DNA of 64,000 nucleotides, from positions 288,001-352,000 of the forward strand of contig CAZSOZ010000001.1 of assembly GCA_964608675.1 (NCBI GenBank), read 5' to 3'. This document shows positions 6,801 through 50,717 of this stretch, in pieces. The position numbers and the translations under genes are program-made. Numbering within the stretch: the stretch's first letter is position 1; each line of letters starts with the position of its first letter. The notes under the pieces were generated by a model that saw only the letters and a list, made by a program, of their open reading frames with translations, did not search any database and was not told the DNA's origin. This stretch comes from an uncultured archaeon. GTDB taxonomy: Archaea > Iainarchaeota > Iainarchaeia > Iainarchaeales > 1-14-0-10-31-34.

Positions 6801-7104
6801 TTACTACTTCGCTGAAAGCAGGATTAAAGTAAATTTCTTTTATTTCTGCGCTTTCAGGAACCAATTCCTGAATTACTTTTTTTGCATGCATTTCGTCTGA
6901 CAAAAGGCTTTTGTCTGTTCTGATATTTACTCTTTTTTTTAATTCAAATGCAATTTTTGCAACAAAGTTTTCGTTTTCAAAAAAAGCTTTTGGATTTCTT
7001 GTATAAATTGCTACTTCAGGGCCTTCCATTTCAATATTTGTTATTTGAGTTTCTTTTGGAAGGTTTGACTGAATTATTTCTTTTACTTCTTTTAATGCAT
7101 CCAT
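3865..7104 (-). CDS. fttA: aCPSF1/FttA beta-CASP ribonuclease with KH domains, containing an intein
   Basis: N-terminal KH domains, LGGFREVG, HAHLDH, and FSGHSD; lies next to psmB as in other archaea. Length is 628 aa after removing the intein. Confidence 0.95.
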   Translation of the reverse strand: MDALKEVKEIIQSNLPKETQITNIEMEGPEVAIYTRNPKAFFENENFVAKIAFELKKRVNIRTDKSLLSDEMHAKKVIQELVPESAEIKEIYFNPAFSEVVIDAIKPGLVIGKGGETSKEIILKTGWTPNILRSPTSESEILKGIRHHLHKYSSERKKILNETAKKIYREKNKNNGWVRLTALGGFREVGKSCLMIETPETKVLLDVGVDVANIEQPYPYLEAIRFPLDQLDGVVISHAHLDHSGLIPLLFKMGYRGPVYCSVDYEEQVMIKEDGVIKTEKIGKVIDSIIDESKEKEELPYNEFIAAKPERNIEVPCFSKKDYKVRFKKVKEVIRHSVDDDLFEITAKTGRKVKVTGSHSVFVLKNGKIKEIKVNELSEGDQLVVPQKIPTQETKLINLKGKMNENKYLFKNGKIKTKQSKGIPQVLEVNKELLRILGYFASEGHIEKRAVRFTFGLKEEEIVKELKNCIKTVFGLEAKEAVKNRNTISVSVNSIVVRDLFKNYFFKEYKKATSKHVPEIVFNVSNELKMQFVDAYFKGDGTVNLLNKTAHAISVSERLVSDISYVLTQLGINYTLFSRHVVSAKTKNIAHRITLNLSDFGGTKRLDKKSTEIIPLKETNFNKEWYYHRLKERKSVTKERLKALIDKGWIVNTKGSTYSIQENLSKLAESDLSFLPITKIKKVEASNGHVYDFSVDEDENFVGGNAPICLHNTKPTRDLMALLQFDYIDVLIKEGKEPPYTERDVKEMLKYCITREYREVTDIAPDMRITLHNASHILGSASVHFHIGEGAHNLVYSGDIKFGFTRLFNNVDINYPRLETLIIESTYGGKDDIQQDRNKAEEQLIRILKETMHKGGNTLIPVFSVGRAQEIMLVIEEYYRKGMLDGKVFVDGMTKEASAIHTAYPEYLRKGVQRRVLQNDSPFTSELFQTANAKERDKILEEKEAIIIASSGMLTGGPSVQYFQKMAENPKNTMVFVGYQGEGSLGNRIQKGLKKTPISDNGKTRELPINMRVETVEGFSGHSDRNQLVNYIRNLNPKPKKIIVNHGEKDTAIEFARYVSNKFRINSNAIRDLDAVRLK
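4969..6321 (-). mobile_element. Intein with LAGLIDADG homing endonuclease (451 aa)
   Basis: Interrupts GPVYC|TKPTRDL. Starts SVDYEE, has block B VTGSHSVF, LAGLIDADG motifs LGYFASEG and VDAYFKGDG, and ends VYDFSV..ENFVG...LHN/T. Confidence 0.95.
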
Positions 7105-7180
7105 TAGTTCACTCTCTCTTTTTTTAAGTTAATCTTTTTATATTTAAGAAAAAAAAATTCAAAACCAAGTTTTTTTTTAT

Positions 7181-7783
7181 TTAATCCTGTTGTATTTCTC
7201 TTGTTCCGTTTTTGTCTATAATCATTATTTTTACTGAAATTCCACCGGAATAAAGGTCTCTTTTTTTTGAGGCTTTAACTGCTTTTAATGCTAATTCAAT
7301 TCCTTGTTCTGTTGAAATGTTTTCAGCATAATTTTGGTCTAAAACACTCATTGCAAGTTCTGTTCCAGAACCAGTGACTGCAAACCTTTTTTTTTCAAGA
7401 AGGCCTCCGGAAGGATCAATATCAAATAATTCAGGTTTATTGTTTATTCCTCCTACTACAAACTGCACAAGGAAAGGATAAAACCTGTTTGAATTCAAAA
7501 TGTTTGAAGCAAATGTTGCAATTGCTTTCGGAGTAATTTTTGTTTCTCTTTCTATTTCAAATAATTTTGCATGGCTTCTCAGAAACCTAACTAAAGTTAA
7601 TGCGTCTCCGACTGAACCCGCAATAGTTACTGCAACATTATCGCTTATTTTGTATATTTTCTGGACTTCTTCATCGTAAGCTAAATGCCCCATTGAAGCT
7701 CTCATGTCTGCTGCCAGTACAACAGAATCTTTTGTAACCAAGCCTACAGTTGTAGTACCAGTTTTAAGTTTTTTGTCTTCCAA
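7181..7783 (-). CDS. psmB: Proteasome beta subunit
   Basis: KTG|TTTVG autocleavage site and D-SGG motif. Likely TTG start at 7783 after a GGTGA RBS. Confidence 0.95.
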   Translation of the reverse strand: MEDKKLKTGTTTVGLVTKDSVVLAADMRASMGHLAYDEEVQKIYKISDNVAVTIAGSVGDALTLVRFLRSHAKLFEIERETKITPKAIATFASNILNSNRFYPFLVQFVVGGINNKPELFDIDPSGGLLEKKRFAVTGSGTELAMSVLDQNYAENISTEQGIELALKAVKASKKRDLYSGGISVKIMIIDKNGTREIQQD

Positions 7784-7897
7784 AAAAAAATCACCACAAT
7801 TAGTCAAGTGCGCCTATATTTAATGTTTTACTAACTATTTAAAAACTTAATTAACTAAACCGCAAACATTAAAAATAAAAAAAGACTAAATGCTGTT

Positions 7898-8536
7898 ATG
7901 CCTGCAAGAAAAACTGCGATGCACAAATATCTTCCTGAAATAAAAAAAGAATTAAAATCCAAAAAAACAGGCTTTTCAGAAAAAACTCTTTTTTTAGAAC
8001 AAGCATTCAAAAAACTAAAGAAAAAAATTCCAAAAGAACGCCTTGGATTATATCTTCAAAGAACAATGCGTAATTCAAAAAATAAAGCTGAAAGAATTTT
8101 TGCAGTTAGAAACTTAATAAAGTATTCAGGTTCTGAATCAGCAGCCAGGCATTTAAGAAAATCAGTATTTTTTGACAGAGATCCTTTGGTAAGGCTTTCT
8201 GCTTTTCAGGAACTGCTTAAAACAAATGTTTCTGATTCAATTAAAAGAAAAATATTTTTGGAAAGATTTTTCAGGCAGGAAGTTATTCTGGATCCACAAT
8301 ATTCAAAGCAGACAACAACTGCAAGAGCTTTTTTTAAAAAAGAATATATTGATGCTGTTGCATTTAATAAAAAAATGAAAGATAAAACAAAACTTGTTTT
8401 TTTTGAGACGGCATTTAAGAGAATTGAAAAATCAAATGTTTTTGAAAAAAAACTTCATTTGAACGAATCAGTTAAAGAACATTTGCAGTCAAAAATTGAT
8501 TTTTTAAAGCAAAAATTGAACAGAAAAGCAGCTTAA
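7898..8536 (+). CDS. Basic hypothetical protein with HEAT-like segment
   Basis: Long Lys/Arg-rich ORF containing DRDPLVRLSAFQEL, a HEAT-like motif. Confidence 0.6.
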   Translation: MPARKTAMHKYLPEIKKELKSKKTGFSEKTLFLEQAFKKLKKKIPKERLGLYLQRTMRNSKNKAERIFAVRNLIKYSGSESAARHLRKSVFFDRDPLVRLSAFQELLKTNVSDSIKRKIFLERFFRQEVILDPQYSKQTTTARAFFKKEYIDAVAFNKKMKDKTKLVFFETAFKRIEKSNVFEKKLHLNESVKEHLQSKIDFLKQKLNRKAA

Positions 8537-37887: not shown

Positions 37888-39503
37888 GAGATTTATTCAA
37901 GAACTGGAGGATTTTGCTTTTATTGTTTTTCTTATTTGCTTCCTTGCTTTCAGTTTCTTTTAATGGATTAAAATATGGAATTGATTTTGAAGGAGGAACC
38001 CAATTTCAGATTCACTTAGAGGAACCCTTAAATTCTCCTGAAGAAATTTCACAGATTACTTCAATTATTTCCAGAAGACTTGATTGGACTGGCCTGAAAG
38101 ACACTAAAGTGACTGCATGGGGAAATGAATTTATTATTGCTCAGGTTGCAGAAACAAACCCTGAACAGGTTGAAAGAATTGAACTGCTTTTAAAAAAACA
38201 GGGAAAATTTGAAGCAAGGCTTGAAGGAAAAACAGTTTTCACTGGCTCTGATATTGTTCATGTTTTTAAAGAGCCTCAAAAAGGCTATGGAGTACTGAAA
38301 CAACAGGATGCCTTTGAATGGCGCCTTCCTTTTATGTTAAGCCAAGAAGGTGCACAAAAATTCACTGAAATGACTTTTCATAAATGTACTATTACTGGTT
38401 TTGAACAAAACACCGGAAAAACATATGAGTGCGAAAAAACTTATTTTTTTATGGACAGACCTCATGCAGTAATTTTAGTTCCCAGAACAGTTTTTGAATC
38501 AAACAAAGAAATGCTTTTGCAGGGAAACATGGTTGAAAACATTCCTCCTAACACTGATATTGATGAATTAATTCTTAATGCAGGAACTCCTTTGATTATT
38601 TCTGATTCAAATCTTTCAGATGAAGACAAAAACAAATTAATTAATTTTTCAGAGGACTTTGAAGACGTGTTTGTTCTTCAGGGAGTTTATTCAAATGAGT
38701 TTTTGCAGGACTTGAATTCATTTGGATTCAATTTTGTTGAAATAGAAAAAGAAGAAAATATTCCTTGGATTTGGACGGCTACAGGCGCCAGAGAAATAAT
38801 TTCTTTGAGTGAAGATGTAACAAACATGAAGCCTTATGTTGAAAACATCGAAAACGCAAAAACTTATTCTGAATTAGTTATCAGAGGATTTGGAGTAAAT
38901 GAAGATGATGCTCTTGAAAAACTTTCAAATTTAACTATTCTGCTTGAATCAGGGTCTCTTCCTATTGGAGTTGAATCAATTGGAAAAGAAACAATTTCTC
39001 CTAATTTAGGCGAAGAATTTCTTGATGTTGTTATTTTAATGGGTGTGTCTGCTTTGTTGATTGTAATTCTTGTTTTGTTTTTAAGATACCGTGAACCAAA
39101 GCTGATTATTCCTATGGCTTTCACTGTTTTTTCTGAAGTTGTGATAATTCTTGGTTTTGCTTCTTTTATTAAATGGAATCTTGATCTTGCTTCTCTTGCA
39201 GGAATCATTGCAGCAGTTGGAACAGGGGTTGACCACCAAATCGTTATTTCTGATGAATTACTGCGAAAGGAAGCAGACTATGAAACTTCTTTTGTTAATC
39301 GTGTTAAAAGAGCTTTTTTCATTATTTTTGCTGCAGCCGCAACTTCTCTTGCAACCATGGCTCCAATTATTTTATTTGGTTTCGGCTTAGGAAAATTAAT
39401 TGGTTTTGCAATAACAACTATTGTAGGGGTTTTGGTAGGGGTTTTTATTACTCGGCCGGCTTTTGGTGAAATCGCAAAATACCTGTTATCAAAAGCAAAT
39501 TAA
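37884..39503 (+). CDS. secD: Protein translocase subunit SecD
   Basis: GIDFEGGT, LESGSLP, ISPNLG, GTGVDHQIVI. Confidence 0.93.
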   Translation: MRDLFKNWRILLLLFFLFASLLSVSFNGLKYGIDFEGGTQFQIHLEEPLNSPEEISQITSIISRRLDWTGLKDTKVTAWGNEFIIAQVAETNPEQVERIELLLKKQGKFEARLEGKTVFTGSDIVHVFKEPQKGYGVLKQQDAFEWRLPFMLSQEGAQKFTEMTFHKCTITGFEQNTGKTYECEKTYFFMDRPHAVILVPRTVFESNKEMLLQGNMVENIPPNTDIDELILNAGTPLIISDSNLSDEDKNKLINFSEDFEDVFVLQGVYSNEFLQDLNSFGFNFVEIEKEENIPWIWTATGAREIISLSEDVTNMKPYVENIENAKTYSELVIRGFGVNEDDALEKLSNLTILLESGSLPIGVESIGKETISPNLGEEFLDVVILMGVSALLIVILVLFLRYREPKLIIPMAFTVFSEVVIILGFASFIKWNLDLASLAGIIAAVGTGVDHQIVISDELLRKEADYETSFVNRVKRAFFIIFAAAATSLATMAPIILFGFGLGKLIGFAITTIVGVLVGVFITRPAFGEIAKYLLSKAN

Positions 39504-39504
39504 T

Positions 39505-39999
39505 TCAAAGCAGTTCATTGAATTCTTTTACTTTAGTTATTTTTTTTGTAAAATAATACCATAATCCAATAATGAATACTGCGGTTGTCATCCATGAAAT
39601 TTCGTGAAGCACTCCTATTAATTCTTCTCCAAAATTTAGTCCTGACCACAACACAAAATAAATTCTAAGCAGATTCAAAAAAAACATTATTGTTCCGGCT
39701 AAAACAAATATTTGCATTTTTTTTTTCATTTCAGGTTTTTTTAAAGAAAAAATGATTGCTGCCAGAATGCTTATGCTGATTAATCCTGTGCATGAAGGAT
39801 TAATTAAAATCTGTTTTTCTTCTAAAAAAACAAGGTTTTCCTGCAAAGGCAGTCCAAAAAAACCTGCTTGAAGAAACGCAATCCAGTTCTGCAGAAAATT
39901 TAAGGGAATACTCCAAACCAAATAATGGAGCGCTGAAAAAATCACAGTAAATTTTATCAGAAAAAATATTGTTTTATTTTCTTTTATTTTTTTAATCAT
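39505..39999 (-). CDS. Archaeosortase/exosortase family protein
   Basis: Cys-Arg-His triad pattern PSCTG...NLLRI...LHEI in a small polytopic membrane protein. Confidence 0.85.
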   Translation of the reverse strand: MIKKIKENKTIFFLIKFTVIFSALHYLVWSIPLNFLQNWIAFLQAGFFGLPLQENLVFLEEKQILINPSCTGLISISILAAIIFSLKKPEMKKKMQIFVLAGTIMFFLNLLRIYFVLWSGLNFGEELIGVLHEISWMTTAVFIIGLWYYFTKKITKVKEFNELL

Positions 40000-40002
40000 T
40001 TT

Positions 40003-40518
40003 TTACCAGGGAACTTTTTTTAATTTGAATTTGAATGCAATAAAATTTGCTGTTTTGTGTGCAATAACAGTTATGACACACACTACAAAAAACAATTGGA
40101 TTGAAATATTGTGAATAAGGCTTCCTAACAGAAGCCCTCCAAAAACAAAATCCAATTGGTCTAAAACAATAACTGGTTTTCCTCGCTTGATGTCCAGTCT
40201 TCTTTTAATAAAGCTTCCTGTTATATCTCCTAAAACTGCTCCTAATGCAAGAAGGACTCCGTATTCAAAATAATTTTTTATTATTGGAACGTTTCCTTGA
40301 AAATAAAAATCAACTAAAAAAACTGCAAGTATTCCTATTCCTGCTCCAAAAAGAGTTCCTTTAATTGTTTTTCCTTTTCCAAATAAAGGTTTTTTGTCAA
40401 AAAAATTTAAGTTGAAATCCACTGGAGTTTTTCCTCCTAAAAGCATTGCAGTAGAATTCGATAAATACAATGGAATTAAAATCAGCATTATTTCAAGAAT
40501 TAATGAAGTGTAATCCAT
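40003..40518 (-). CDS. carS: CDP-archaeol synthase
   Basis: PVDF...LFGKGKT.KG, GD..GSFIKRRL...RG and LDQLDF. Confidence 0.92.
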   Translation of the reverse strand: MDYTSLILEIMLILIPLYLSNSTAMLLGGKTPVDFNLNFFDKKPLFGKGKTIKGTLFGAGIGILAVFLVDFYFQGNVPIIKNYFEYGVLLALGAVLGDITGSFIKRRLDIKRGKPVIVLDQLDFVFGGLLLGSLIHNISIQLFFVVCVITVIAHKTANFIAFKFKLKKVPW

Positions 40519-40633
40519 TCAACCAACTTTTTTTTTGTTATTAAATAAAAGCGTTTTTTCTTTATTAATTTTTTTATTGTTTCCTTTTTAATTCAATTGC
40601 TTTTTTATTCTTTTTCTGTCAATATTCTTTTCT

Positions 40634-41533
40634 ATGAAAAAATTAGTTTTATTTATTGGTTTAGGTTTATTTCTGCTTGTTTTGATTGCTTTGGTTTTGT
40701 CTCTTGTTTTTCCCCAGAATTTTTCAGGTTTGTCAGGCGAAATTGCAGTTATCCCGATTAAAGGAGAAATTCTTTCGTCTTCTGATTCTTTTTCTTCTTC
40801 AATGAGTTCAACTTTGATTGCAGGAAAAATAAGGGAAGCAGACAAAGATCCTTTTATTAAAGCAATTTTTTTGGATATTGATTCCGGAGGAGGAAGTGTT
40901 GTTGCTTCAAAGGAAATAGTTTATGCTGTAAGGAAAGCAAAAAAACCGGTTGTAGCTTATATAGGGGGAGTAGGAGCATCAGGAGCGTATTATATTGCAG
41001 CAGCATCTGATTTAATTATTGCAGATGAAGATTCTCTTACAGGAAGTATTGGAGTAATAAGCATGTCAACTAACATTCAAGGTTTTTTAGAAAAACTTGG
41101 AATTGAAGTAAAAGTATTAAAGGAAGGAGAATTCAAAGACATGGGTTCTCCGTTTAAAGACTTAACAGAAAAAGAAAAAGAAATTTTAAATGAAATAATT
41201 TTTCAGGCTTCACAAAACTTTAAGTCAGATATACTGGAATTCAGAGAAAGCAAACTTAATGAATCAAAATTCAATCAGGTTGCAGATGGAAGAATTCTTT
41301 CAGGAAAAACAGCAAAAGAATTTGGTTTAATTGATTTAACTGGAAGCAGGCAGTTTGCAGTAAAAAAAACAGCTGAATTAGCAGGAATTAAAGGAGAACC
41401 AGTTTTAAGAAAATTTTCTCAGCCTGAAACCGATTTCTTTTCTTTGCTTTCAAAAGCAGGTTATTCTTTTGGCACAGGATTTATTTCAGCAGTAAAATCA
41501 TCTGAACCAAAATTTAAATTAAATGCAGAATAA
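40634..41533 (+). CDS. sppA: Signal peptide peptidase SppA (S49)
   Basis: DSGGGS, ASGAYYIA, TGSIGV, GEFKD. Confidence 0.93.
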   Translation: MKKLVLFIGLGLFLLVLIALVLSLVFPQNFSGLSGEIAVIPIKGEILSSSDSFSSSMSSTLIAGKIREADKDPFIKAIFLDIDSGGGSVVASKEIVYAVRKAKKPVVAYIGGVGASGAYYIAAASDLIIADEDSLTGSIGVISMSTNIQGFLEKLGIEVKVLKEGEFKDMGSPFKDLTEKEKEILNEIIFQASQNFKSDILEFRESKLNESKFNQVADGRILSGKTAKEFGLIDLTGSRQFAVKKTAELAGIKGEPVLRKFSQPETDFFSLLSKAGYSFGTGFISAVKSSEPKFKLNAE

Positions 41534-41540
41534 TTATTTT

Positions 41541-42227
41541 TTATCCTGCAACAATTACAGAAAAAACTACAGCGATTGAAGTTGCAATAAAATTAACCCC
41601 TGTATTTGAAAGCTTTCCTTTTCTTTCAAATAATGCGCCTAAAATGCTGTCAGCAAAAGTTCCAATCAATCCTGCTAAAAGAATTACTCCTGCAAAAAAC
41701 ACGCTTGAATACAATGCATAATGCATTAATGCAATTAATCCTGCTCCAATTAAAGCAAAAACACAGCCTAAAACTGTGATTCCTCCGTCTGTTCCTGTTT
41801 CTACTTCTTTAAAGGTAGTGATAAGCAAAGGCTTTCTTGATGAAAGCATTCCTATTTCAGAGCTTAATGTATCGGCTAATGCAGCTGAAATTCCTGCAAA
41901 AAAACCAATAGGAAAATTTAATCCTAATGCAATTACTCCTGCCAGTGAATTTCCCAGAATGTTTCCTGTTGTTCTCACTTCGTGTTCTTTTCGTATTTTT
42001 TTTGATCTGTATCTTGTTCCTGTTTCTCCGATAACAAAAAAATAGGAAATAAAAAGGAAAGCAGTTAATCCTCCTGTTGAAGTTATCTGCCCTAAAAAAA
42101 CAGTTGTTAATCCGATTAATAATCCGATTAAAATTCCTTTTCTGTCAAAACTTTTCTTTTTTACTGAAATAAAAGTAAATATTGCTAAAATAATTAATAT
42201 AATAAGCAGTTCTATTGAAGTTAACAC
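41541..42227 (-). CDS. DUF92/TMEM19 membrane protein
   Basis: ADTLSSEIG, GTDGGIT.LG, DSILGA, VNF. Confidence 0.9.
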   Translation of the reverse strand: MLTSIELLIILIILAIFTFISVKKKSFDRKGILIGLLIGLTTVFLGQITSTGGLTAFLFISYFFVIGETGTRYRSKKIRKEHEVRTTGNILGNSLAGVIALGLNFPIGFFAGISAALADTLSSEIGMLSSRKPLLITTFKEVETGTDGGITVLGCVFALIGAGLIALMHYALYSSVFFAGVILLAGLIGTFADSILGALFERKGKLSNTGVNFIATSIAVVFSVIVAG

Positions 42228-42229
42228 TT

Positions 42230-42850
42230 TTATTTACCTTCAATCAGCTTTGTTTTGGCTATTTCAACTCTTCTTATTGAACCTATTTTTTTTGCGTCAT
42301 TCTGTATTTTTATTGCAATGTTTCCAAAAATCATTTCGTTTAAAAAGTCATCAAAATCTTTTTTCTTTGAAGCATAAGCAATTTTTTCCATCATTATTTT
42401 TCTTACTGCTGTTTCTTTTATTTTTGTTAGTTTTCTTCCTGATACAACTACTGCTTTTACTCTTGTTTTTTCTCCGTCTTTTAATTCTAAAACCTGATTT
42501 GTTTCCATTTTGCTTGTTCTTCTTCTTATAACTCTTTTCAGGAAATTAGGGTTTATTTCGTGTCCTAAAACTTTGGTGTATGCTTTTAATCCCTGAACAT
42601 CTTTTATTTTAAAAAACAAAGTAATATGTTGTTTTTTTGGATTTCCTGTTAATGTTCTTACATTAATTTTAATGATTCTTCCCTGTAGGGTTTCAGGTTT
42701 TTCTGCAACAGTTTCTCCTATTTCTTTTTGGTCAAATAATTTTGGAGCATATACTGTAAACCATTTCTTTTTTTTCCATTTATCTGTGGTTCTTCTTGAA
42801 TCTGTTTTTTTTGGTTTTATTTTTTCTTTTTTTTGTTCTTTTTTTGCCAT
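42230..42850 (-). CDS. rps3ae: 30S ribosomal protein eS1 (S3Ae)
   Basis: DKWKKKKWFTVYAPKLF...GR signature. Confidence 0.95.
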   Translation of the reverse strand: MAKKEQKKEKIKPKKTDSRRTTDKWKKKKWFTVYAPKLFDQKEIGETVAEKPETLQGRIIKINVRTLTGNPKKQHITLFFKIKDVQGLKAYTKVLGHEINPNFLKRVIRRRTSKMETNQVLELKDGEKTRVKAVVVSGRKLTKIKETAVRKIMMEKIAYASKKKDFDDFLNEMIFGNIAIKIQNDAKKIGSIRRVEIAKTKLIEGK

Positions 42851-42855
42851 TCTTA

Positions 42856-42963
42856 TCACAGTTCCTGAATCATTTTTTCTCCTGTTTCCAGAAGATTTTT
42901 CAGCCCTTTTCCTTTTTCTTCTTTTTCGTGATTTTTTGTTTTTATTTTGATTGAGTAATTCAC
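42856..42963 (-). pseudogene. 35-aa ORF at the conserved pcc1 position, possible internally deleted KEOPS Pcc1
   Basis: GTG overlaps the uS15 stop (TAGTG); MNYSIKIKTKNHEKEEKGKGLKNLLETGEKMIQEL*; ends just before the eS1 start. Confidence 0.4.
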
Positions 42964-43418
42964 TATTTCACCATTAATTCTGCTTCTTCTTCTGTGTATC
43001 TCCATCCTTCAGGGATTTTTCCTTTGTTTGAATAATATTTTCCCAGCCTTCTTATTTTTGATACAGTCAGCTGGTATCCTCTTAAAGCACTTTTATCGTG
43101 CTTGTTGTTTTCGTAATGTTTTTTTTCTTTAACAGATTTTCTGATTAAGTTAAGTAAATTTCTTGGAAAATCAGATTTAATTCCTGCTTCTTCAATTATT
43201 TTTTCAATCTTTTTTTTGGTTGCTGTTTTAACTGAAGGAACAGCATATTCGTCTCTTAAAATTATTCCTATTTCTGAAGAAGGGTGCCCTTTATGGGCTA
43301 ATTCAATTATTTTTTCTTCTATTTCTTTTGGTTTTAATTCAATCCATTCAGGATTGCTTTTTTTTGCCGGTCTTTTTGAACCGCTTTTTCCTTTGCTTCT
43401 TCCGTGAATTCTAGCCAA
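42963..43418 (-). CDS. rps15: 30S ribosomal protein uS15 (S15P/S13e)
   Basis: ARIHGRSKGKSGSKRP, SEIGIILRD, SKIRRL..YY. Confidence 0.96.
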   Translation of the reverse strand: MARIHGRSKGKSGSKRPAKKSNPEWIELKPKEIEEKIIELAHKGHPSSEIGIILRDEYAVPSVKTATKKKIEKIIEEAGIKSDFPRNLLNLIRKSVKEKKHYENNKHDKSALRGYQLTVSKIRRLGKYYSNKGKIPEGWRYTEEEAELMVK

Positions 43419-43549
43419 ATAAATCTACTCCTATAAAATACTTTTTAATAACATAAAATAAATGCATAAAAAATAGCATCAAATTAATGCTTTACACTCA
43501 ATATTTTGTGAAACATTAGGTTTTTATAGCTTTTTTCGATTCTTTTTGC

Positions 43550-44149
43550 TTATAAATATCTTCCTCTTTTTTCTACTTCCTGAATTCTTTTAATTACTGT
43601 TTTTCCGTGTTTTGATTTCAGGTATCCTTTTTCAATCCATTTCCATTCTTTTTTCTTTTCCGGATGGGAAGACAAAAAAGTTCTTTTAAATCCCAGTAAA
43701 TCAACTGCAAAATCTTCAATTTTTTTTGAATTAAAGCCTAATCCAAAATCAATAAAAAAAAGTTTTTCTTTAAATAATATGTTGTTGGCAGTTAAATCTC
43801 CATGCACAATCTGGTTTTTATGAAGCAAAGAAATCTGTTTTCCTAACTCCAAAAAATCTTTTTTCTTTAATTCATTAATTTGTTCTTTTATTTTTTTTGC
43901 TTTAATGAATTCCATTAAAATAATTCCTTTTTCTTTCTGAACTTCAAACAAAACAGGAGTTCTTATTCCAGCCAGTTTTGCTTTATGAATCAGGTTTGCT
44001 TCGTCTCTTGTTCTATGTTTTCTGATTTTTTCATCCAATTTTTTGTTTCTGTATTTTTTGTTTGTCCTGTGTTTTTCAATTATTTTTCTTCCAAACTTTT
44101 TAATTAAAAAAGTTCTTGCTTCTGCTCCCTCAAAAATCAGTTTTTTCAT
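43550..44149 (-). CDS. bud32: KEOPS kinase/ATPase Bud32
   Basis: GAEA, HGDLTANN, IDFGL, C-terminal RGRY. Confidence 0.95.
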   Translation of the reverse strand: MKKLIFEGAEARTFLIKKFGRKIIEKHRTNKKYRNKKLDEKIRKHRTRDEANLIHKAKLAGIRTPVLFEVQKEKGIILMEFIKAKKIKEQINELKKKDFLELGKQISLLHKNQIVHGDLTANNILFKEKLFFIDFGLGFNSKKIEDFAVDLLGFKRTFLSSHPEKKKEWKWIEKGYLKSKHGKTVIKRIQEVEKRGRYL

Positions 44150-44174
44150 TTAAAAATTAAATAAAAAAAAGTAT

Positions 44175-44702
44175 TTAACAGCTTCTTTTGTCTTTTATTT
44201 CTCTGAAAGAAATTATTATTGAATTAGTTGTATCTAAAACATTTTCATTCCATTCTTTTGTTTTTTCTGCAAGCTTGTCATATTCAAGGTATTCCTGAAT
44301 TGAATTTCTTGCTGATTCAGCAGAGCTTATAATTGAATCAACTGCTTCCATCTGCTTTTTGCATTCAATTGCTTTTCTTGCTTCAATCAAATTCAACTGC
44401 ATTAAAATTAATTCTTTTCTTGCTTTAACCAGAAGCTTTAATGCATTTGCTTCTTTATCTTGTTTTTTTTCGTTCAGTTTTTTTTCAAAATCAGTTAATT
44501 CAAGATTGTATTCTTTAAGTTTCTGTTCTTGTGCAGGAACAAGACCTTCAGAAAAAAATTTGCTGTCAATTGATTCCAATTCATTTAAGCCTTCTTCAAA
44601 GGAAATTGTGTTGAATGCGTTTTCAACGTAAACAAAATAATACAATAAGAGCGCTGCAAGCAGAACCAAAAGCAATTTACTTCGCATATTCATTAAAACC
44701 AC
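44175..44702 (-). CDS. Membrane-anchored helical hypothetical protein
   Basis: N-terminal TM followed by an amphipathic helical region. Confidence 0.65.
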   Translation of the reverse strand: MVLMNMRSKLLLVLLAALLLYYFVYVENAFNTISFEEGLNELESIDSKFFSEGLVPAQEQKLKEYNLELTDFEKKLNEKKQDKEANALKLLVKARKELILMQLNLIEARKAIECKKQMEAVDSIISSAESARNSIQEYLEYDKLAEKTKEWNENVLDTTNSIIISFREIKDKRSC

Positions 44703-44738
44703 TAGTAATAATATTTCTTCTTTTTATTAAAGTTTTTT

Positions 44739-44747
44739 GGTTTTCGG
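44739..44747. repeat. Left target-site duplication GGTTTTCGG
   Basis: Identical 9-mer at 50167-50175. Confidence 0.92.
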
Positions 44748-44772
44748 GACGTTGTTTAAAAAGTCCTTTTTA

Positions 44773-44792
44773 GAGGCTTCTGTTTAAAAACT
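44773..44792 (+). repeat. Inner (subterminal) left inverted repeat
   Basis: GAGGCTTCTGTTTAAAAACT matches the reverse complement of 50100-50119 at 18/20. Confidence 0.85.
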
Positions 44793-44830
44793 ATTTTTTA
44801 AATAGCTGTGTCTAAAAAACACTTTTAATA

Positions 44831-45862
44831 TTATTGAGATTTATGCATCCATTTTAACAGATTTGTAGATGAAGAAGCACTTTTTCTGATTTTTCTTTTT
44901 TTAGTTGGCTTACGCCTTTCTAAAGCCATTCTTTCTGTACATATTTTTCTTGAAAATTTTTCATATTGTTTATTTTGCTTCTTCGGTTTAGCTAAATCAG
45001 ATAAACTAACAGTAATGTAAACGCCATCGAATCTTAACGTATTCATTTTTCTCAAAAACACAAGCCCTTCAATTACCCAATCACGCTTAAGTTTAGAGAA
45101 TTCATTATTTGTGCGTTCTAAAATGAAGCTATAAAAATCATCAAAATTAACTCTTTGTTCTTTTCTTGGATTTGGCTGTTGAAGTACTTTAGAAAAAAAT
45201 TGTCTAATAAACCCCTCTATTTCTCCTGCAAGATATGGAATAGGAGGTTTTCTCTTTGAAAAAGTAAAATTTTTTGTTGTTTGATAAATGGCTATTTTAG
45301 GAAGACTTATAGTTATTCCAGTCGGGTTTTCTTTTAACTTACTTAAAAATTCATTTTCATCTGCATTTCCTTTATAAAACTGAAGTTTTAAAGTTTCTTC
45401 ATTCCCTGTGTTCTTGTACACATTGAAGCTCACAAAACATATTTTTTTGGATTCTCCTTCTCCAGATAAGTCTTTGTTTTTTTCATACATCTCTACTAAA
45501 TTTTGTATTTTATCCACATGACAAATAAAAATAAAGTTGTTTGTTTTGTATTTTTTTCCAGAAATAAAAACATCGGACAGTCTTAATCTATTATTTTTAA
45601 TATCTTCATAAATTTCTTCTTCTTTGTTTGGGAGAGAATTTTTTATTTCTATGAGGCACAAATTTTCATTCTTTGCAATAACTATATCTACTTCAAAAGA
45701 TTTTCCTTCTTTTGTCTTTACGTCATCTTCAGCTTGAATTAAAGTCCATTCAAGATTATTTTCTTTTAAAAATTTATGAACAAAACTAACTATCTGAAGT
45801 GTTGAAGAATAAAACTGTGAGTCTCTTATGAGTAAATCTATACATTTTTGTTTTTCATCCAC
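44831..45862 (-). CDS. PD-(D/E)XK nuclease-domain protein with possible C-terminal winged helix (transposon cargo)
   Basis: E...EVDIVI.....LIEIKNS motif; later KPPIPYL...WVIEGLVFL; basic tail ending STNLLKWM. Confidence 0.65.
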   Translation of the reverse strand: MDEKQKCIDLLIRDSQFYSSTLQIVSFVHKFLKENNLEWTLIQAEDDVKTKEGKSFEVDIVIAKNENLCLIEIKNSLPNKEEEIYEDIKNNRLRLSDVFISGKKYKTNNFIFICHVDKIQNLVEMYEKNKDLSGEGESKKICFVSFNVYKNTGNEETLKLQFYKGNADENEFLSKLKENPTGITISLPKIAIYQTTKNFTFSKRKPPIPYLAGEIEGFIRQFFSKVLQQPNPRKEQRVNFDDFYSFILERTNNEFSKLKRDWVIEGLVFLRKMNTLRFDGVYITVSLSDLAKPKKQNKQYEKFSRKICTERMALERRKPTKKRKIRKSASSSTNLLKWMHKSQ

Positions 45863-47011
45863 TTAACCACTTTGAATTTTTCCTTCCCCAAATCTTGAGA
45901 ATAAATAAGAAATTAATTTAGAAAGAGAGACTCCAGAACAAGAGTATTGGGGGATAATCATCATTTCATAGGATGAATTACTTTCACTGTTTTTATCATA
46001 AAATAGTATATCGTAAGTTGAGCCATCATTATAATCCGTTGCTCGTGAATGAAAATAGGGATTTCCAGAATGATATAAATTTACTAATATATTTTTGTTA
46101 GACTGCAAAATAGAACTAAAATTTTTGACAACCTGATGATTTGTTATTCCGGGGATATTTATGTCAAATTCTACTTTTATCTCATTTACTTTGTCTATTG
46201 TTCTTTCTTTGTTTTCAAAAAGCTCCAGCTTGTCAAATCTATCCTGAATTATCTTGTTCAATATTCTTTCTTCAAAAAAGTCATAATATCCATCAACATA
46301 CTTCACTAATCCTTTTCTTGAAATTTGTGTCCTTAATATTAATCTTTTGTTTTCAGAATCCCTTACATCAAAAGAAATTGTATTAATAAATGAGTTTTCT
46401 TCGCCAATATTTTTCAATACTTTTTCTATTGGAACATCAGATAGATAATGTATCTCAGAACTATATAGTCTGCCTTTCCTAACAACTCGTTCTTCCTTTT
46501 GCCACCATCGTTTAATAGAGAGTAATGTTGCACTTATGAAATATCCCTCATTCTTTATTCCTTCTAAGATATCTCTAATTTGTGTCGATGAAATAAAAAG
46601 ATTTTTAGAAAAAGGGTAAAGTTTGTTTAAAAAATAAGGAAGAGCTTCTCTTAAAAAGTTTGACTTGCCGTCTGACAAAAACAATGCCAAATGTTTAGTT
46701 TTATCAAATAAACAAAGGGCGTTCCCTTTTATTCTTTCAATTTTACCCTCAGAATTGTTCCTTAATTTTTCAATATGTAGTTTAACTAACTTCTTTGAAG
46801 CGGTTTCTTCGACAACATCAAAACGCAACAGAATATTATTTGAATATTTTTTACTAACAAAATCAAAAACCGAAATGGGTTCTACTGTTTTGGAAAAAAG
46901 AGTTATATAAAAAACTATTTTATTTTCTGAAATTTGAGAGATTTCCTTGTAGGATTTCAAATAACTTTGCATTTCTTTTATAGAATTAATATTTTCAGAA
47001 ATGCCAGTCAT
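45863..47011 (-). CDS. Uncharacterised protein (transposon cargo), translationally coupled to the nuclease gene
   Basis: 382-aa ORF with a GAGGGGGG RBS; its stop abuts the next GTG; motif-like C-terminus HSGNPYFH...DGSTYDI...IIPQ...FGEG. Confidence 0.8.
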   Translation of the reverse strand: MTGISENINSIKEMQSYLKSYKEISQISENKIVFYITLFSKTVEPISVFDFVSKKYSNNILLRFDVVEETASKKLVKLHIEKLRNNSEGKIERIKGNALCLFDKTKHLALFLSDGKSNFLREALPYFLNKLYPFSKNLFISSTQIRDILEGIKNEGYFISATLLSIKRWWQKEERVVRKGRLYSSEIHYLSDVPIEKVLKNIGEENSFINTISFDVRDSENKRLILRTQISRKGLVKYVDGYYDFFEERILNKIIQDRFDKLELFENKERTIDKVNEIKVEFDINIPGITNHQVVKNFSSILQSNKNILVNLYHSGNPYFHSRATDYNDGSTYDILFYDKNSESNSSYEMMIIPQYSCSGVSLSKLISYLFSRFGEGKIQSG

Positions 47012-47100
47012 AAACCCCCCTCATTAACATTCGCTTTGAAATTATGGATGTTAAAATTTAAATTACTATGGGAATGCTCGTTTTTGGCAAAAGCTGGTTT

Positions 47101-47259
47101 TTAAGTATTTTCATCCATTAACGATTTTACTGTTTTTTTCATTAAAAAATCCAAATTGGTTTTATTGTTTCTTGCATAAATGGTTGTTGTTTTTGATTTG
47201 CCTGTCTTTAAATCAATTAGCCGTAACCTGTAATTTCCTTTTTGTCTTCCTATTTGCAT
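47101..47259 (-). CDS. Small basic protein (52 aa, transposon cargo)
   Basis: Manual translation MQIGRQKGNYRLRLIDLKTGKSKTTTIYARNNKTNLDFLMKKTVKSLMDENT*. Confidence 0.55.
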   Translation of the reverse strand: MQIGRQKGNYRLRLIDLKTGKSKTTTIYARNNKTNLDFLMKKTVKSLMDENT

Positions 47260-47300
47260 GGAAAAATTTATTCAGTTTGTGCATTTAAACCACCAACAAC

Positions 47301-47345
47301 TTGTACAACTTTTTGTACAACATTTAAAAACATGATTTTATACAA
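47301..47345. promoter_or_regulatory. Tandem TTGTACAA palindromes in a divergent cargo promoter
   Basis: TTGTACAA at 47301-47308 and 47313-47320; a TTATACAA variant near 47338-47345. Confidence 0.5.
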
Positions 47346-47353
47346 TACTTTAG

Positions 47354-48337
47354 ATGATTTTAAAGAACAATCTCAAAATAATGAGTATTTTATTTATTTT
47401 TTTGTTCCTTTTTGGTTGCTTGGATTCAGAGGAGAATAACCAAAAACAAGAATTAAAGGAATCAGAAATTGAACTTTACTCACTTTATTTAGAAAGTATT
47501 TTCACTTCAGATTATGTTGTTGCTGATGCACAAGATGAGTTAAAATTTGAAGTGAGAAAATGCAATTTTGAGAAAGGAATGTTAGGAGAAAAACCTCTTC
47601 TTTTGGCTTTTGAAAGACCAATTATAAGCATTCATTCATTAGAAGGCACTCCTGAAAGAAACACAGTAATTGCTGGAACACAAATCAATGACAAAAACTA
47701 TGTTCAGACAGTTTTTGCACCACTCATAACTTTGGCAATAATTAACAAAGGCAAAACTGATAGCGGAGAAATAAGACTTTCTTTTGATGTTGAATCAAAT
47801 GGAGATTTAACGTTTGCTAATGTTGAAAGATTTAGTTGGGGGGCAGGATATAGAACAAAGTTTCCTGAAGATTTAGTACACAAACATTATTTTATAACAG
47901 AAGAAAATGAATATGTTTTTTTTGATGCTGACAAAATAGGTTCTGAAGATTTGTCTGAAAACGAAATAGTTATGGATGAACTAACTGAAGCAAAAATTCT
48001 GACGCTTTGTAATGACGGGGTTCTTGATTATTCTGAGTTTCTTGGAGTTAATTTTCCTTGTAGACAATCCTTCAAAGAAATACAAATAGAGAATTTACAG
48101 CCAAATGAAATAGCCAAAATTTCTTTCTTTTATTTTCCTATGCAAAGAATAAGTTTTGAATCTAAATATCCTGTTAATCCAAAATATCAGTTTCCAATAA
48201 AAGAAAAAGAAAACGAATTAACTGAAATTAAAATTTATTATGCAAATAATGTTTCAAAAGAACTTTTATTAAAAATCAACCTTTCGCATTCTTTGAACGA
48301 GTTTTCTTTTGACGAGATTCTTGATAATTGTCAATGA
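47354..48337 (+). CDS. Lipoprotein of unknown function (transposon cargo)
   Basis: LFGC lipobox after a hydrophobic stretch; acidic beta-rich body. Confidence 0.75.
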   Translation: MILKNNLKIMSILFIFLFLFGCLDSEENNQKQELKESEIELYSLYLESIFTSDYVVADAQDELKFEVRKCNFEKGMLGEKPLLLAFERPIISIHSLEGTPERNTVIAGTQINDKNYVQTVFAPLITLAIINKGKTDSGEIRLSFDVESNGDLTFANVERFSWGAGYRTKFPEDLVHKHYFITEENEYVFFDADKIGSEDLSENEIVMDELTEAKILTLCNDGVLDYSEFLGVNFPCRQSFKEIQIENLQPNEIAKISFFYFPMQRISFESKYPVNPKYQFPIKEKENELTEIKIYYANNVSKELLLKINLSHSLNEFSFDEILDNCQ

Positions 48338-48584
48338 GTTTTTTAAAATCTTCCCACGTTGGAACATCTAACATTTCTTCCCTGAGTCTCCATCTAATTC
48401 TGTTTCCTTCTCGGTATACTTCTAATATGCTCGGCTGGTCAATTCCGCTCATGGCTCTTAAATATTTTTTTGCAGTAGCCCAACTCATGTGCGTTTTTAA
48501 TGCAATTCTTCTGGTAGTTACTCCTCTATTAGCTAACCACAAATATTTTAGAATAATGTATTGAAAGTCATTTAGATTTTTCAT
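48276..48584 (-). CDS. Winged-helix/HTH DNA-binding protein
   Basis: ILKYL...TTRRIALKTHMSWATAKKYL...IRW HTH plus wing. Confidence 0.8.
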   Translation of the reverse strand: MKNLNDFQYIILKYLWLANRGVTTRRIALKTHMSWATAKKYLRAMSGIDQPSILEVYREGNRIRWRLREEMLDVPTWEDFKKLIDNYQESRQKKTRSKNAKG

Positions 48585-48804
48585 CTAAAAACCTCACAGT
48601 AACTTCCTTTTTGTCTTTTTTCTTTAAATCAAATAAAATTTTTGCTTTTTGTCCTTTTTTGATTTTTAAATAATCAGCCAATTCTTTAGGAAACCTTAAG
48701 AAGAATTGTCTGCTGTCAAAACTAACACTTACTTCCCACATATCAACTGATAAACTATCATCAATTGCTTTATTAACAGTTCCTCTTTGACTCAATTTTT
48801 TCAC
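48568..48804 (-). CDS. AbrB/SpoVT-like DNA-binding protein
   Basis: QFFLRFPKELADYLKIKKGQK, matching the AbrB-type Q..+.+P..+...L.+..G motif. Confidence 0.75.
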   Translation of the reverse strand: MKKLSQRGTVNKAIDDSLSVDMWEVSVSFDSRQFFLRFPKELADYLKIKKGQKAKILFDLKKKDKKEVTVRFLDEKSK

Positions 48805-48831
48805 CTTTTTAATTATAATTTATTCACTTAA

Positions 48832-48917
48832 AACGTACGTTCAAGATAAAATAAAATATTAGTCGTACGAAACATATTTAAATCTATTTATACACTATTA
48901 ATTATTCGTACGAATAA
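48832..48917. promoter_or_regulatory. Divergent promoter with three CGTACG palindromic sites
   Basis: AACGTACGTT (48832-48841), TCGTACGA (48863-48870) and the perfect 16-bp TTATTCGTACGAATAA (48902-48917) around a TATA-like element; AAGGTG RBS before the transposase. Confidence 0.7.
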
Positions 48918-48933
48918 CTCGCAAGGTGTTTTA

Positions 48934-50100
48934 ATGGATGAAAGCTTTTGCTGGAAATGTGGGTCAAAAAAAGTGATTAAAAAAGGCAAATCTGTTTCTA
49001 AATGGAAAAGTTTTTGGAAACAGAGATTTCAATGCCTTGCTTGTAATCACAAGTTTATAAGTAAAAAAAAACATTTGATTGACTATGAAGAAAAAGAATT
49101 TGTTTACAAAACTAAACCAATCCCTAAAATAGATTGGAGTGCATACAATAAAGCACAGACAAATGAAAAGCTTATGATATTCAGTTTAATTGATGAACTT
49201 CTTGATTTAATTTCTATGTCTCAAGAACAAAAAACTGGAAGACCTGCTATTCAGATTAGAGATATGGTATTTTGTATGCTAATAAAAATATATACAAAAA
49301 CTTCCAGCAGAGCAGTTGTTTCAGATTTAGAGTTAGCAAAAAGACAGGGTTACATAAATCATGTTCCTTGCTATTCAACTCTCATGTTATATTTTAATGA
49401 TGAGAGACTTCAAAAAATATTAAAAGAATTAGTGCACTTGTCTGGACTGCCTTTGAAAGATGTCGAAGAACATTTTTCCATAGATTCATCAGGATTTTCA
49501 ACCTCTCAATTTGGAAGGTGGTTTGACTTTAGATTTAGAAACAAATCAATCATAACAGAGGAAAGGGTCTTTAGAAAAGCACATATAATGGTTGGCGTCA
49601 AAACAAATGTAATTACTGCAATAGAAATAACAACACAAACCCATGCAGACAGCCCACAACTAAAAGCATTGCTAAAAAAAACAGTTTTGAATTATGATGT
49701 AAAGGAAGTTTCAGCAGATAAAGCTTATTTAAGCATAAATAATCTTGAACTTATTGACTCTGTTGGGGCAGTTCCATTGATTCCATTCAAGAAAAATTCA
49801 AAAGGTTCAAGAGGAAGACAAGGAATGATTTGGAAAAAAATGTTTTGGTATCAAAAAAACAAACCTCAAGAGTTTTATGAACGCTATTACAAAAGAGCAA
49901 ATGTAGAATCAACATTTAACATGATAAAACAAAAATTTACTCCAACTCTTATGACAAAAAATTTTGTAGCAAACGTGAATGAAATAATGGGCAAAGCATT
50001 ATGCCACAACCTACGCTGTTTAATCTACGGATACTTTAAATTAGGAATAAATAAAAAATTTGCAGAAGTCCTAACAAACAACCAAAATGTCACTTATTGA
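48934..50100 (+). CDS. DDE transposase, IS5 family (IS903-like), with N-terminal Zn ribbon
   Basis: CxxC...CxxC N-terminus, DWSAYN, IDSSG, ADKAY, Y..RANVESTF. The stop codon overlaps the inner right repeat. Confidence 0.9.
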   Translation: MDESFCWKCGSKKVIKKGKSVSKWKSFWKQRFQCLACNHKFISKKKHLIDYEEKEFVYKTKPIPKIDWSAYNKAQTNEKLMIFSLIDELLDLISMSQEQKTGRPAIQIRDMVFCMLIKIYTKTSSRAVVSDLELAKRQGYINHVPCYSTLMLYFNDERLQKILKELVHLSGLPLKDVEEHFSIDSSGFSTSQFGRWFDFRFRNKSIITEERVFRKAHIMVGVKTNVITAIEITTQTHADSPQLKALLKKTVLNYDVKEVSADKAYLSINNLELIDSVGAVPLIPFKKNSKGSRGRQGMIWKKMFWYQKNKPQEFYERYYKRANVESTFNMIKQKFTPTLMTKNFVANVNEIMGKALCHNLRCLIYGYFKLGINKKFAEVLTNNQNVTY

Positions 50101-50119
50101 GTTTTTAAACAAAAGTCTC
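50100..50119 (-). repeat. Inner (subterminal) right inverted repeat
   Basis: AGTTTTTAAACAAAAGTCTC; shares TGAGTTTTTAAACAA as a direct repeat with the terminal copy at 50148-50162. Confidence 0.85.
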
Positions 50120-50135
50120 AAAATATTAGAATCTG

Positions 50136-50717
50136 CTAATCTTGTGCTGAGTTTTTAAACAACGTCGGTTTTCGGATTTCCAGTATTCTGAAATAAAAGT
50201 TAGCAATAATGCTTGAAACCATGTGGCTGATTAAAAGAATGTAAAATGTTTCTTTTTCAAAAAATTCAGCTGAATAAAATTGTTTTGCAGTAAAATATAA
50301 AAGGAAAAAGATTATTAGTGTAAGAAAAACTTTTTTCCTGGTAAGTTTTATGTAATGAAATATCGGCACTTTTTCCACTAAAGCAAGCCCTAGCGGAACA
50401 ACCAGGATCATAATCAAAAAAAAAGTGTATCCCCAGCCTGTCAACACCAGAAAAAGAAACGGAACCGAAAAAAGAAATGTTATTTGTTTGAATCGTTCCT
50501 TTAATTTTTCCGAGTTTTGTTTGTTCCATCCAAAATAATTTTCCAGCAGAGAAACAAAAACAACCATCGAAGTAGCCATTAAAACAAAATAAATTCTTGC
50601 TTGAATTGAATCAAAAAAAGGGCTTTCCTGCACTAAAAGAAAATAACTTGTTACTGCAAGAAAAAAAAATATTATGAATCCAATCCAGAACCTCTGCCTT
50701 AATTTTTTTGGCATCAT
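50136..50717 (-). CDS. Polytopic membrane protein whose C-terminus is replaced by the transposon end
   Basis: About six TM segments; the last residues (TLFKNSAQD) are read from the right end of the element. Confidence 0.75.
   Translation of the reverse strand: MMPKKLRQRFWIGFIIFFFLAVTSYFLLVQESPFFDSIQARIYFVLMATSMVVFVSLLENYFGWNKQNSEKLKERFKQITFLFSVPFLFLVLTGWGYTFFLIMILVVPLGLALVEKVPIFHYIKLTRKKVFLTLIIFFLLYFTAKQFYSAEFFEKETFYILLISHMVSSIIANFYFRILEIRKPTLFKNSAQD
50167..50175. repeat. Right target-site duplication GGTTTTCGG
   Basis: Identical to 44739-44747. Confidence 0.92.

Follow-up and report, generated by a model that had tools for sequence, protein, structure and literature searches.

Two adjacent genes in a stretch of DNA from an uncultured archaeon of the Iainarchaeota, here called the window (64,000 nucleotides; GenBank assembly GCA_964608675.1, contig CAZSOZ010000001.1, positions 288,001 to 352,000), encode a real, widespread and uncharacterised module, a putative heteromeric nuclease. 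Gene A specifies a chain of TBP/KA1-like domains, and gene B a putative PD-(D/E)XK nuclease with a winged helix (coordinates in Table 1). The pair arrived at its present site as the passenger of a transposon, and it is an accessory trait spread over two domains of life. We propose that A and B are two subunits of one DNA-directed nuclease complex, to which B would contribute the endonuclease and a winged-helix DNA-binding domain in the domain order of DpnI. Protein A, which does not look enzymatic, would dock by its conserved C-terminal domain on the linker and winged-helix region of B and there sense, target or gate. Most likely the complex would serve in a methyltransferase-independent defence against invading DNA, either by a restriction-like attack on the foreign DNA or by self-attack after A has sensed infection. 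We infer the nuclease activity, the trigger sensed by A and the defence role, and place the probability of a two-subunit nuclease module with a defence role at about 45%.

A first-pass annotation of the window had already put the pair forward as a candidate novel defence system. Three of the checks that it set came out in its favour, namely the co-occurrence of the two genes, the lack of a match to a described system in PADLOC-DB v2, and the accessory, transposon-borne rather than housekeeping nature of the pair; the defence function itself stays conjectural.

A conserved gene pair in archaea and bacteria

At the junction of the two genes, the minus strand reads TAA and then GTG GAT GAA (plus-strand text 45852 to 45882), so that the stop codon of A directly abuts the GTG codon of B, a tight coupling that the first-pass annotation had described exactly. 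A three-sequence profile of A led to 16 metagenome loci. In 15 of these the next open reading frame (ORF), on the same strand and a few bases away, is a homologue of B, and the contig of the 16th stops 98 nt past A. Beyond these two genes, the 16 loci share no conserved neighbour.

The family of A is large, and the window's own branch of it is small. An exhaustive profile search of 1.84 billion cluster representatives returned 667 sequences at E ≤ 0.001, 498 at E ≤ 1e-10 and 98 at E ≤ 1e-30; most of the 150 listed members span 335 to 390 aa, and about one-fifth are shorter. A sub-alignment of the largest branch (A6) led to 32 loci in named genome assemblies. Their archaeal hosts are Nanoarchaeota, Nitrosopumilus and Cenarchaeum (Nitrosopumilaceae), Bathyarchaeota, Promethearchaeota (Loki) and Micrarchaeota, and their bacterial hosts are Planctomycetota, Omnitrophota, Bacteroidota, Chloroflexota, Ignavibacteria and Aminicenantes. 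The ORF next to A matches the B profile (E 1e-12 to 1e-32) for 23 of 33 A ORFs, which together with locus L050 gives 24 of the 32 genome loci, and the spacing in the 23 measured pairs (L050 left out) ranges from −62 to +15 nt. Co-occurrence of the homologues, a check on the earlier proposal, is strong in both samples.

Within the phylum, the A family is found in 2 of 215 genomes and in none of five congeners; in the sole other genome that has A (G148), B follows it there too. A tblastn search located A on plasmids of Haloarcula marismortui (pNG100), Natrinema, Halosimplex, Halosegnis and Arthrobacter. On the Haloarcula, Natrinema and Arthrobacter plasmids the gene after A is a hypothetical one of about 345 to 376 aa; these partners show weak alignments to the B profile, with hhalign probabilities of 2.5 to 18% and hidden Markov model (HMM) E values of about 1e-3, and are not counted as confirmed B homologues.

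Other searches returned few relatives or none. A word-indexed search of 5.8 billion proteins yielded two relatives of A (31 to 32% identity) and no relative of B. A first profile scan of genome contigs with the A2 alignment gave no relative, and no A-family match was present in the phage collection. Among viral contigs, a single A6 locus was found (L073, a 30-kb IMG/VR contig, 35% identity to the A6 reference), and none with the A2 alignment. Of 8000 candidates that were scored, none was a fused or longer form of A, a result that counts as weak evidence by the tool's own rating. In the portions of the literature available to us (on the pair, the MJECL names discussed below and related fold and defence topics), we came across nothing on the pair.

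Some copies are irregular. At L005 (1443 to 2508) and L016 (2940 to 3928), two ORFs stand in place of a single B homologue, owing to a frameshift or pseudogene formation or to an assembly error. Sponge-associated Cenarchaeum metagenome-assembled genomes (MAGs) carry several copies of A per genome (L041, L064 and L068 on one contig, L044 and L048 on another), including two A genes in tandem at L048; some of these copies have no recognisable B, which suggests expansion and decay of the module.

Protein B: a PD-(D/E)XK motif followed by a winged helix

Protein B appears to consist of an N-terminal PD-(D/E)XK nuclease domain (D59, E72, K74), a helical linker, a winged helix at about residues 205 to 294 and a disordered basic tail. 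The restriction-like motif claimed for its N-terminus (D59...E72-I-K74) is present in the sequence and kept in relatives: among 35 B-family sequences, D59 occurs in all 35, E72 in 34 (one has D) and K74 in 34. Other conserved residues in this set are Y18 and P206 (both 35/35) and W262 (34/35). In the AlphaFold2 model of B (13-row alignment; mean predicted local distance difference test score, pLDDT, 76.8; predicted template-modelling score, pTM, 0.75), D59 lies just before strand 60-64, E72 within strand 67-73 and K74 just after it. The catalytic D...(D/E)-x-K motif, judged by the triad in the 35 sequences and by the model, is thus located on consecutive beta strands.

The fold of B was compared by VIA-align with 48,161 chains; the tool calls Z scores below 8 common. 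Winged-helix domains account for most of the 50 rows listed (Z 6.3 to 8.4, root-mean-square deviation [rmsd] 2.2 to 3.6, covering residues 205 to 294), with the kleisin and JetA winged-helix domains at Z 8.4 and ORC/Cdc6 at 7.8 to 8.2. This region is a three-helix bundle with a beta-hairpin wing, as in a winged helix-turn-helix, and the C-terminal winged helix that had been called from the letters is backed by these comparisons (Z 7 to 8.4). Residues 15 to 170 resemble the type IIS enzyme PaqCI (Z 6.6, 133 aligned residues, rmsd 4.4) and Bax1 (Z 6.4). Foldseek returned no match to the B model at E ≤ 1e-3; its likelier rows above that value were the R2 retrotransposon endonuclease domain (probability 0.87), YaeQ (probability 0.89) and CRP/FNR winged helices. 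Matches of residues 30 to 104 to the family libraries were below threshold: NERD (E 0.013), PDDEXK_10 (E 0.026) and the YraN-like family of NCBIfam (E 0.002). A Pfam AHJR-like match (E 0.015) was likewise below cut-off. As to the PD-(D/E)XK fold that the first-pass annotation had proposed for B, the triad is retained and the fold matches (PaqCI, Bax1, R2, YaeQ) are modest. Because Z scores below 8 are common, we rate the assignment as resting mainly on the invariant triad, and the N-terminal domain is a putative PD-(D/E)XK nuclease.

Protein A: tandem TBP/KA1-like domains with a conserved C-terminus

The model of A is confident (pLDDT 82.8, pTM 0.84) and presents a chain of alpha-beta domains. 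The C-terminal domain (residues 268 to 382) is KA1/TBP-like, its VIA matches including the Chk1 KA1 domain (Z 9.4), the vertebrate conserved region of METTL16 (9.3) and the SAD-B KA1 domain (9.3). The best whole-domain matches of residues 12 to 263 are to the TBP-like double-domain DNA and chromatin binders CENP-L (Z 8.3, 204 aligned), Iml3 (7.8) and RdgC (7.2, 195 aligned), with 176 to 204 residues aligned over the set. Identity to these proteins is 6 to 12% at an rmsd of 5 to 6.5 Å, A has no Pfam RdgC match, and the functions are unrelated; the likeness may reflect a common arrangement only. Foldseek gave high-probability rows for Iml3/CENP-L, RdgC and RnlA, at template-modelling (TM) scores of merely about 0.2 to 0.35. 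Domains of the TBP/KA1-like kind bind nucleic acids, lipids or proteins, depending on the family, and the fold likenesses of A name no function.

The best-conserved part of the A family is the C-terminal motif that the first-pass annotation had flagged (HSGNPYFH...DGSTYDI...IIPQ...FGEG), which is indeed present: in 122 sequences, H314, N317, P318, D326, D329 and P354 are conserved at 90% or more and S331 is invariant. The statement that A belongs to no nameable family held in scans of Pfam, NCBIfam, PADLOC-DB v2 and PHROGs, none of which gave a match at E ≤ 0.1, and family-library scans of 17 and 122 members of the A family and of 13 and 31 members of the B family returned nothing significant. 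Profile searches of the PDB with alignments A2, A3, A5 and A8 yielded no credible relative; an annexin (E 1.5), a spectrin (E 0.011) and the Retron-Kva2 winged helix (E 0.013) headed the lists.

A predicted complex of A and B

When the two proteins were modelled together from their family alignments, the interface score ipSAE was 0.79 (0.78, 0.79 and 0.80 in the individual runs), and the best of three controls reached 0.01. The mark used for this score is attained by 58 of 80 solved complexes and by 2 of 110 mismatched pairs, a calibration that is only rough here because custom alignments were used. The runs have at least 82% of contacts in common, with partner pLDDT values of at least 76. In the modelled interface, residues 305 to 359 of A, which contain the conserved motif, face the N-terminal helix of B, its linker helices at 187 to 232 (including the conserved Y210) and residues 290 to 300. 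The conserved C-terminus of A would, in this model, be the docking surface for B. The prediction supports formation of a complex between A and B via conserved surfaces, and it lends support to the sensor or scaffold plus nuclease effector that the first-pass annotation had envisaged; the sensing by A is the conjectural half of that idea.

A predicted complex this intimate would also be expected of an addiction (toxin-antitoxin-like) module that stabilises its carrier elements, with B as nuclease toxin, A as bound inhibitor and no direct antiviral role. The pair is on a transposon here and on haloarchaeal and Arthrobacter plasmids elsewhere, on the Natrinema plasmid it adjoins ParA, and the domains of A are similar in fold to those, TBP-like, at the N-terminus of the toxin RnlA (Z 7.1 to 7.3). 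Against these points, A at about 365 aa exceeds the usual antitoxin size and is encoded first; it has no HEPN or other toxin domain; and most chromosomal loci have no mobile-element genes within three genes, one IS66 and one DDE_Tnp_1 being all among the families listed for 139 neighbours. We consider a purely addictive module unlikely. An addiction mechanism is compatible with defence, many such modules being abortive-infection systems.

The RnlA/LsoA family deserves a comparison of its own. A shares with the N-terminal two-thirds of RnlA a build of successive TBP-like alpha-beta domains (0.92 to 0.97 in Foldseek probability, VIA Z 7.1 to 7.3), and both belong to two-gene mobile modules. The C-terminal HEPN RNase domain that defines the RnlA/LsoA family is absent from A, where no Pfam match to it was found; the effector here is instead a separate nuclease of the DNA type, and the whole-chain TM score is below 0.2.

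On two of the plasmids, A and the hypothetical protein of equal size that comes after it lie at 5701 to 7955 (L037, pNG100) and at 5671 to 7843 (L038, Natrinema plasmid), the Natrinema pair lying beside ParA near the start of the record.

The pair travels in a transposon

Congeners with an unoccupied site, together with the inverted ends and the duplicated target, show that the pair is the cargo of a mobile element, as had been claimed. In four congeners, DnaJ, p193, p175, Bud32 and S15 follow one another in this order, with about 45 to 100 bp between p193 and p175. In the window p193 and p175 are 5.4 kb apart. An alignment of the junctions shows a single copy of the 9-bp target stretch in the congeners, and none of the six element ORFs has a match at the congener loci. 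In a fifth congener (G015), p193 was not detected, and the cargo is likewise absent. The terminal inverted repeats (TIRs) lie immediately inside the 9-bp repeats and match at 17 of 18 positions (94% complementary); the TIR pattern has two matches in the window, a number attained by 3 of 100 shuffled sequences. The insertion point falls in the last codons of p193 (a 193-aa membrane protein, 50136 to 50717, minus strand), whose C-terminus now runs into the right end of the element and is unlike the C-termini of its congeners.

Its transposase, its TIRs, the duplicated target and the unoccupied site of related genomes mark the insertion as a DNA transposon of the insertion sequence (IS) type. The transposase matches DDE_Tnp_1 at E 1.2e-18 and transpos_IS5_2 at E 5.1e-35 (121 bits, below the 140-bit cut-off). 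Like the IS5/IS4-type IS with passenger genes known as transporter IS, the element has a DDE_Tnp_1 transposase, 18-nt TIRs, a 9-bp duplication and an empty site. A plain IS is about 1.2 to 1.5 kb in size; the element differs from one in its length of about 5.4 kb, its five passenger ORFs, a transposase below the NCBIfam IS5 cut-off and its single copy in the genome. No second copy of element or transposase was found in the genome, parts of the transposase gene having DNA matches of 63 to 70% at most.

Given their location between TIRs and target duplications, beside a DDE transposase, A and B could be accessories of transposition, with B acting like TnsA and cutting one strand at the element ends. 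The domain order of B would be the same as that of TnsA of Tn7, and a DDE transposase accompanies the pair at another locus too (L008). A transposase is nevertheless present beside the pair in only about 2 of 48 other loci, the pair is conserved by itself in very different contexts, and IS5-type transposases are not known to require such a partner. We regard a TnsA-like role as very improbable.

Genomic neighbourhoods and the defence reading

Context was sampled at 48 loci (16 from metagenomes and 32 from genomes) out of several hundred A-family loci; neighbours were taken within three genes if they were at least 90 aa long, and 139 of the 176 were scanned, the nearest first. Restriction-modification (R-M) genes recur in this sample. 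Type I R-M genes adjoin the pair at two near-identical loci (L003 and L004), type IIG R-M enzymes do so at L052 and L062, HsdM/HsdS-like genes are near it at L040 and L069, and L007 has an HsdR-like gene at a distance of 5 kb. An SMC/AAA_21 ATPase is found two genes upstream at L011, a DDE transposase two genes downstream at L008, and a HEPN_Swt1-DUF499 protein next to the pair at L063. Among the 139 neighbours, the Pfam families with the highest counts were N6_Mtase (4), DNA_pol_B, Eco57I and ResIII (3 each), and T1RH-like_C, N6_N4_Mtase, Methylase_S, Mrr_cat and AAA_21 (2 each); of the PADLOC models, mad2 was the commonest (7), ahead of MTase_II (5) and MTase_I (4). We take the defence context to be only moderate and suggestive, R-M or HEPN-DUF499 genes being near the pair at no fewer than 8 of the 48 loci.

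Several observations weigh against a defence role of a two-subunit nuclease. Nameable defence-type neighbours, mainly R-M, occur in only about 8 of the 48 loci, a count without background control that does not demonstrate enrichment near defence genes. Housekeeping genes make up many of the immediate neighbours (thermosome, CoA-transferase, Nre, PPDK, secretin, oxidoreductase, sigma factor, family B DNA polymerase). No meaningful match was found in PADLOC-DB v2.0.0, with no family at E ≤ 0.1 for A; the best matches of B are CARF_PDDEXK (E 0.0013, 54 residues at 43 to 96) and HEC-02B (E 0.019). As to the nuclease itself, the Pfam nuclease matches of B are all below cut-off, and the fold matches of its nuclease domain are middling (Z about 6.5, a level that the tool regards as common). 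No B was found after A in 8 of the 32 genome loci: one at a contig end, one with a broken A, four from Cenarchaeum MAGs with several copies of A, and two others. Finally, the partners on haloarchaeal plasmids align weakly to B, and the one of Haloarcula may be without the triad in a low-confidence alignment. The PADLOC-DB v2 result also bears out the claim of the first-pass annotation that the pair matches no recognised system.

Two candidates were rejected. A housekeeping repair nuclease of the Hjc or NucS kind was ruled out because the pair is in 2 of 215 genomes, and a classical R-M system because no methyltransferase travels with the pair. Consistently with an earlier claim about the element, no methyltransferase was found by Pfam or NCBIfam among its six ORFs.

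The neighbours and fold matches also bear on an accessory role in the repair, recombination or replication of mobile elements, for example as a resolvase-like nuclease guided by an RdgC/CENP-L-like partner. A family B DNA polymerase adjoins the pair at L047 (4745 to 7684), L049 (77 to 3019) and L068 (8942 to 12352, Cenarchaeum); since L047 and L049 are near-identical loci of the Loki type, this adjacency counts about twice and not three times. Nre is a neighbour at L002, and plasmid copies are near record starts. The two N-terminal domains of A resemble RdgC (Z 7.2) and CENP-L/Iml3 (8.3 and 7.8), and the N-terminus of B is similar to Bax1, a nuclease that partners XPB (Z 6.4); by the tool's own account, however, such Z levels are common, and the similarities imply no function. 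Neither a helicase nor a recombinase accompanies the pair with any consistency. The sporadic distribution (2 of 215 genomes) and the variable neighbourhoods argue against a core repair role. We give such a role the same low odds as the addiction module, below those of the defence reading.

Likeness to known systems

The closest parallel in domain order for B is DpnI, a modification-dependent enzyme (type IIM/IV), which likewise has an N-terminal PD-(D/E)XK domain and a C-terminal winged helix; the latter matches residues 205 to 286 of B at Z 7.2, and a cognate methyltransferase is absent from the element. The two proteins have no sequence relationship, B exceeds DpnI by some 90 residues and has an additional, beta-rich section in its middle, and the ~365-aa partner with which B is obligatorily paired has no counterpart in DpnI.

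Distant relatives may be present in Methanocaldococcus jannaschii. In the language-model Atlas, whose MJECL family labels are Pfam 38.1 names as the Atlas gives them, the neighbours of A include PF25924 MJECL33 (19 to 42% of members, score 0.91 to 0.92) and PF27341 AF_0896_M (15%), and the neighbour cluster of B includes PF27326 MJECL32 (30%, score 0.94). On the large extrachromosomal element of M. jannaschii, adjacent hypothetical genes encode proteins of 405 aa and then 438 aa, an arrangement that matches that of A and B. Weak hhalign signals link the 438-aa protein with the PD..ExK core of B (probability 57%, E 1e-4) and the 405-aa protein with the C-terminal motif region of A (probability 18%, E 1.3e-3). 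A scan of the first 50 kb of the plasmid with the A-family HMM gave no match. We take the 405- and 438-aa ORFs to be MJECL33 and MJECL32, a naming by gene order alone and not from the record. As a lead, the pair of the window may belong to a wider superfamily of two-gene modules that includes MJECL33/MJECL32.

The stretch around this MJECL33/32-like pair (L072, pDSM2661_1, 38825 to 45825) is rich in defence genes according to the record's annotation, with an "ATP-dependent endonuclease," an EVE-domain protein and a VapC toxin pair within a few kb and HsdR further on.

It is tempting to go further and to see the pair of the window as the founding example of a cross-domain immune system, in which A, a TBP/KA1-like sensor of a feature of invading nucleic acid or of an infection cue, would switch on the DpnI-like nuclease B through a composite interface of the H-x-x-N-P-Y...D-x-x-D-G-S motif of A and the K-P-P-x-x-Y helix of B. 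Such a system would be spread by transposons and plasmids, with MJECL33/MJECL32 as a distant branch. We hold this broader picture only tentatively, as less probable than the defence role itself.

Significance

Members of the A-B family are known from DPANN, Thaumarchaeota and Asgard archaea and from many phyla of bacteria. If it is a defence system, it adds a family of several hundred sequence clusters to the immune repertoire. Archaea, the small-genome DPANN above all, are under-sampled for experimentally known immunity. We know of no defence sensor with a TBP/KA1-like fold; because A has no catalytic signature and its fold would be new among defence sensors, its trigger would be new biology. 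Should the module serve in addiction or element maintenance instead, it would still be a large uncharacterised nuclease complex. Whatever the function, the locus is a clean example of an archaeal IS loaded with passengers, its ends precise, its target duplicated and the site unoccupied in sister genomes, and it illustrates how such modules travel. As a mobile module of a nuclease and its partner, the pair is of real, not exceptional, interest pending its function.

Other features of the element and its surroundings

The genome (1.2 Mb, 53 contigs, 94% complete, about 30% G+C) has archaeal housekeeping genes on both sides of the insertion: SecD-like, ribosomal proteins, a Bud32/RIO-type kinase, DnaK, DnaJ and GrpE. 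These traits point to an archaeon of the DPANN kind. In base composition the insert (G+C 0.28 to 0.30) is not distinct from its flanks. Four DNA sequencing runs, all of one study, contain parts of the stretch, and one of them may be the source sample; no RNA run is listed among the holders. The contigs are fragmentary, and none shows the empty site or spans the entire insert.

Table 1. Features of the inserted element in the window (positions are those of the window)
Feature	Position	Strand	Remarks
Left target-site duplication	44739-44747		9 bp, GGTTTTCGG
Whole inserted element	44748-50166		5419 bp, six ORFs
Left terminal inverted repeat	44748-44765	+	18 nt
Imperfect hairpin 3' of gene B	44759-44826	minus	32-nt arms separated by 4 nt, 78% complementary
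Gene B	44831-45862	minus	343 aa, GTG start
Gene A	45863-47011	minus	382 aa, ATG start
Passenger ORF, 327 aa	47354-48337	+	signal-peptide-like hydrophobic N-terminus ending in lipobox-like LFGC; no family
Passenger ORF, 102 aa	48276-48584	minus	weak winged helix-turn-helix signals (HTH_24 E 0.0053, below cut-off)
Passenger ORF, 78 aa	48568-48804	minus	overlaps start of 102-aa ORF by 17 nt; no family
DDE transposase, IS5-like	48934-50100	+	zinc-finger-like N-terminal segment
Right terminal inverted repeat	50149-50166	minus	18 nt; similar subterminal copy at 50100-50118
Right target-site duplication	50167-50175		identical 9 bases

The 3' end of the 327-aa ORF overlaps the 102-aa ORF on the opposite strand. 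The 78-aa and 102-aa ORFs may encode two regulators or else a small module of the toxin-antitoxin type. The hairpin directly downstream of B appears terminator-like. Subterminal inverted repeats of 24 nt (44769 to 44792 and 50100 to 50123, 88% complementary) lie directly inward of the TIRs at the two ends of the element and may be extra binding sites for the transposase.

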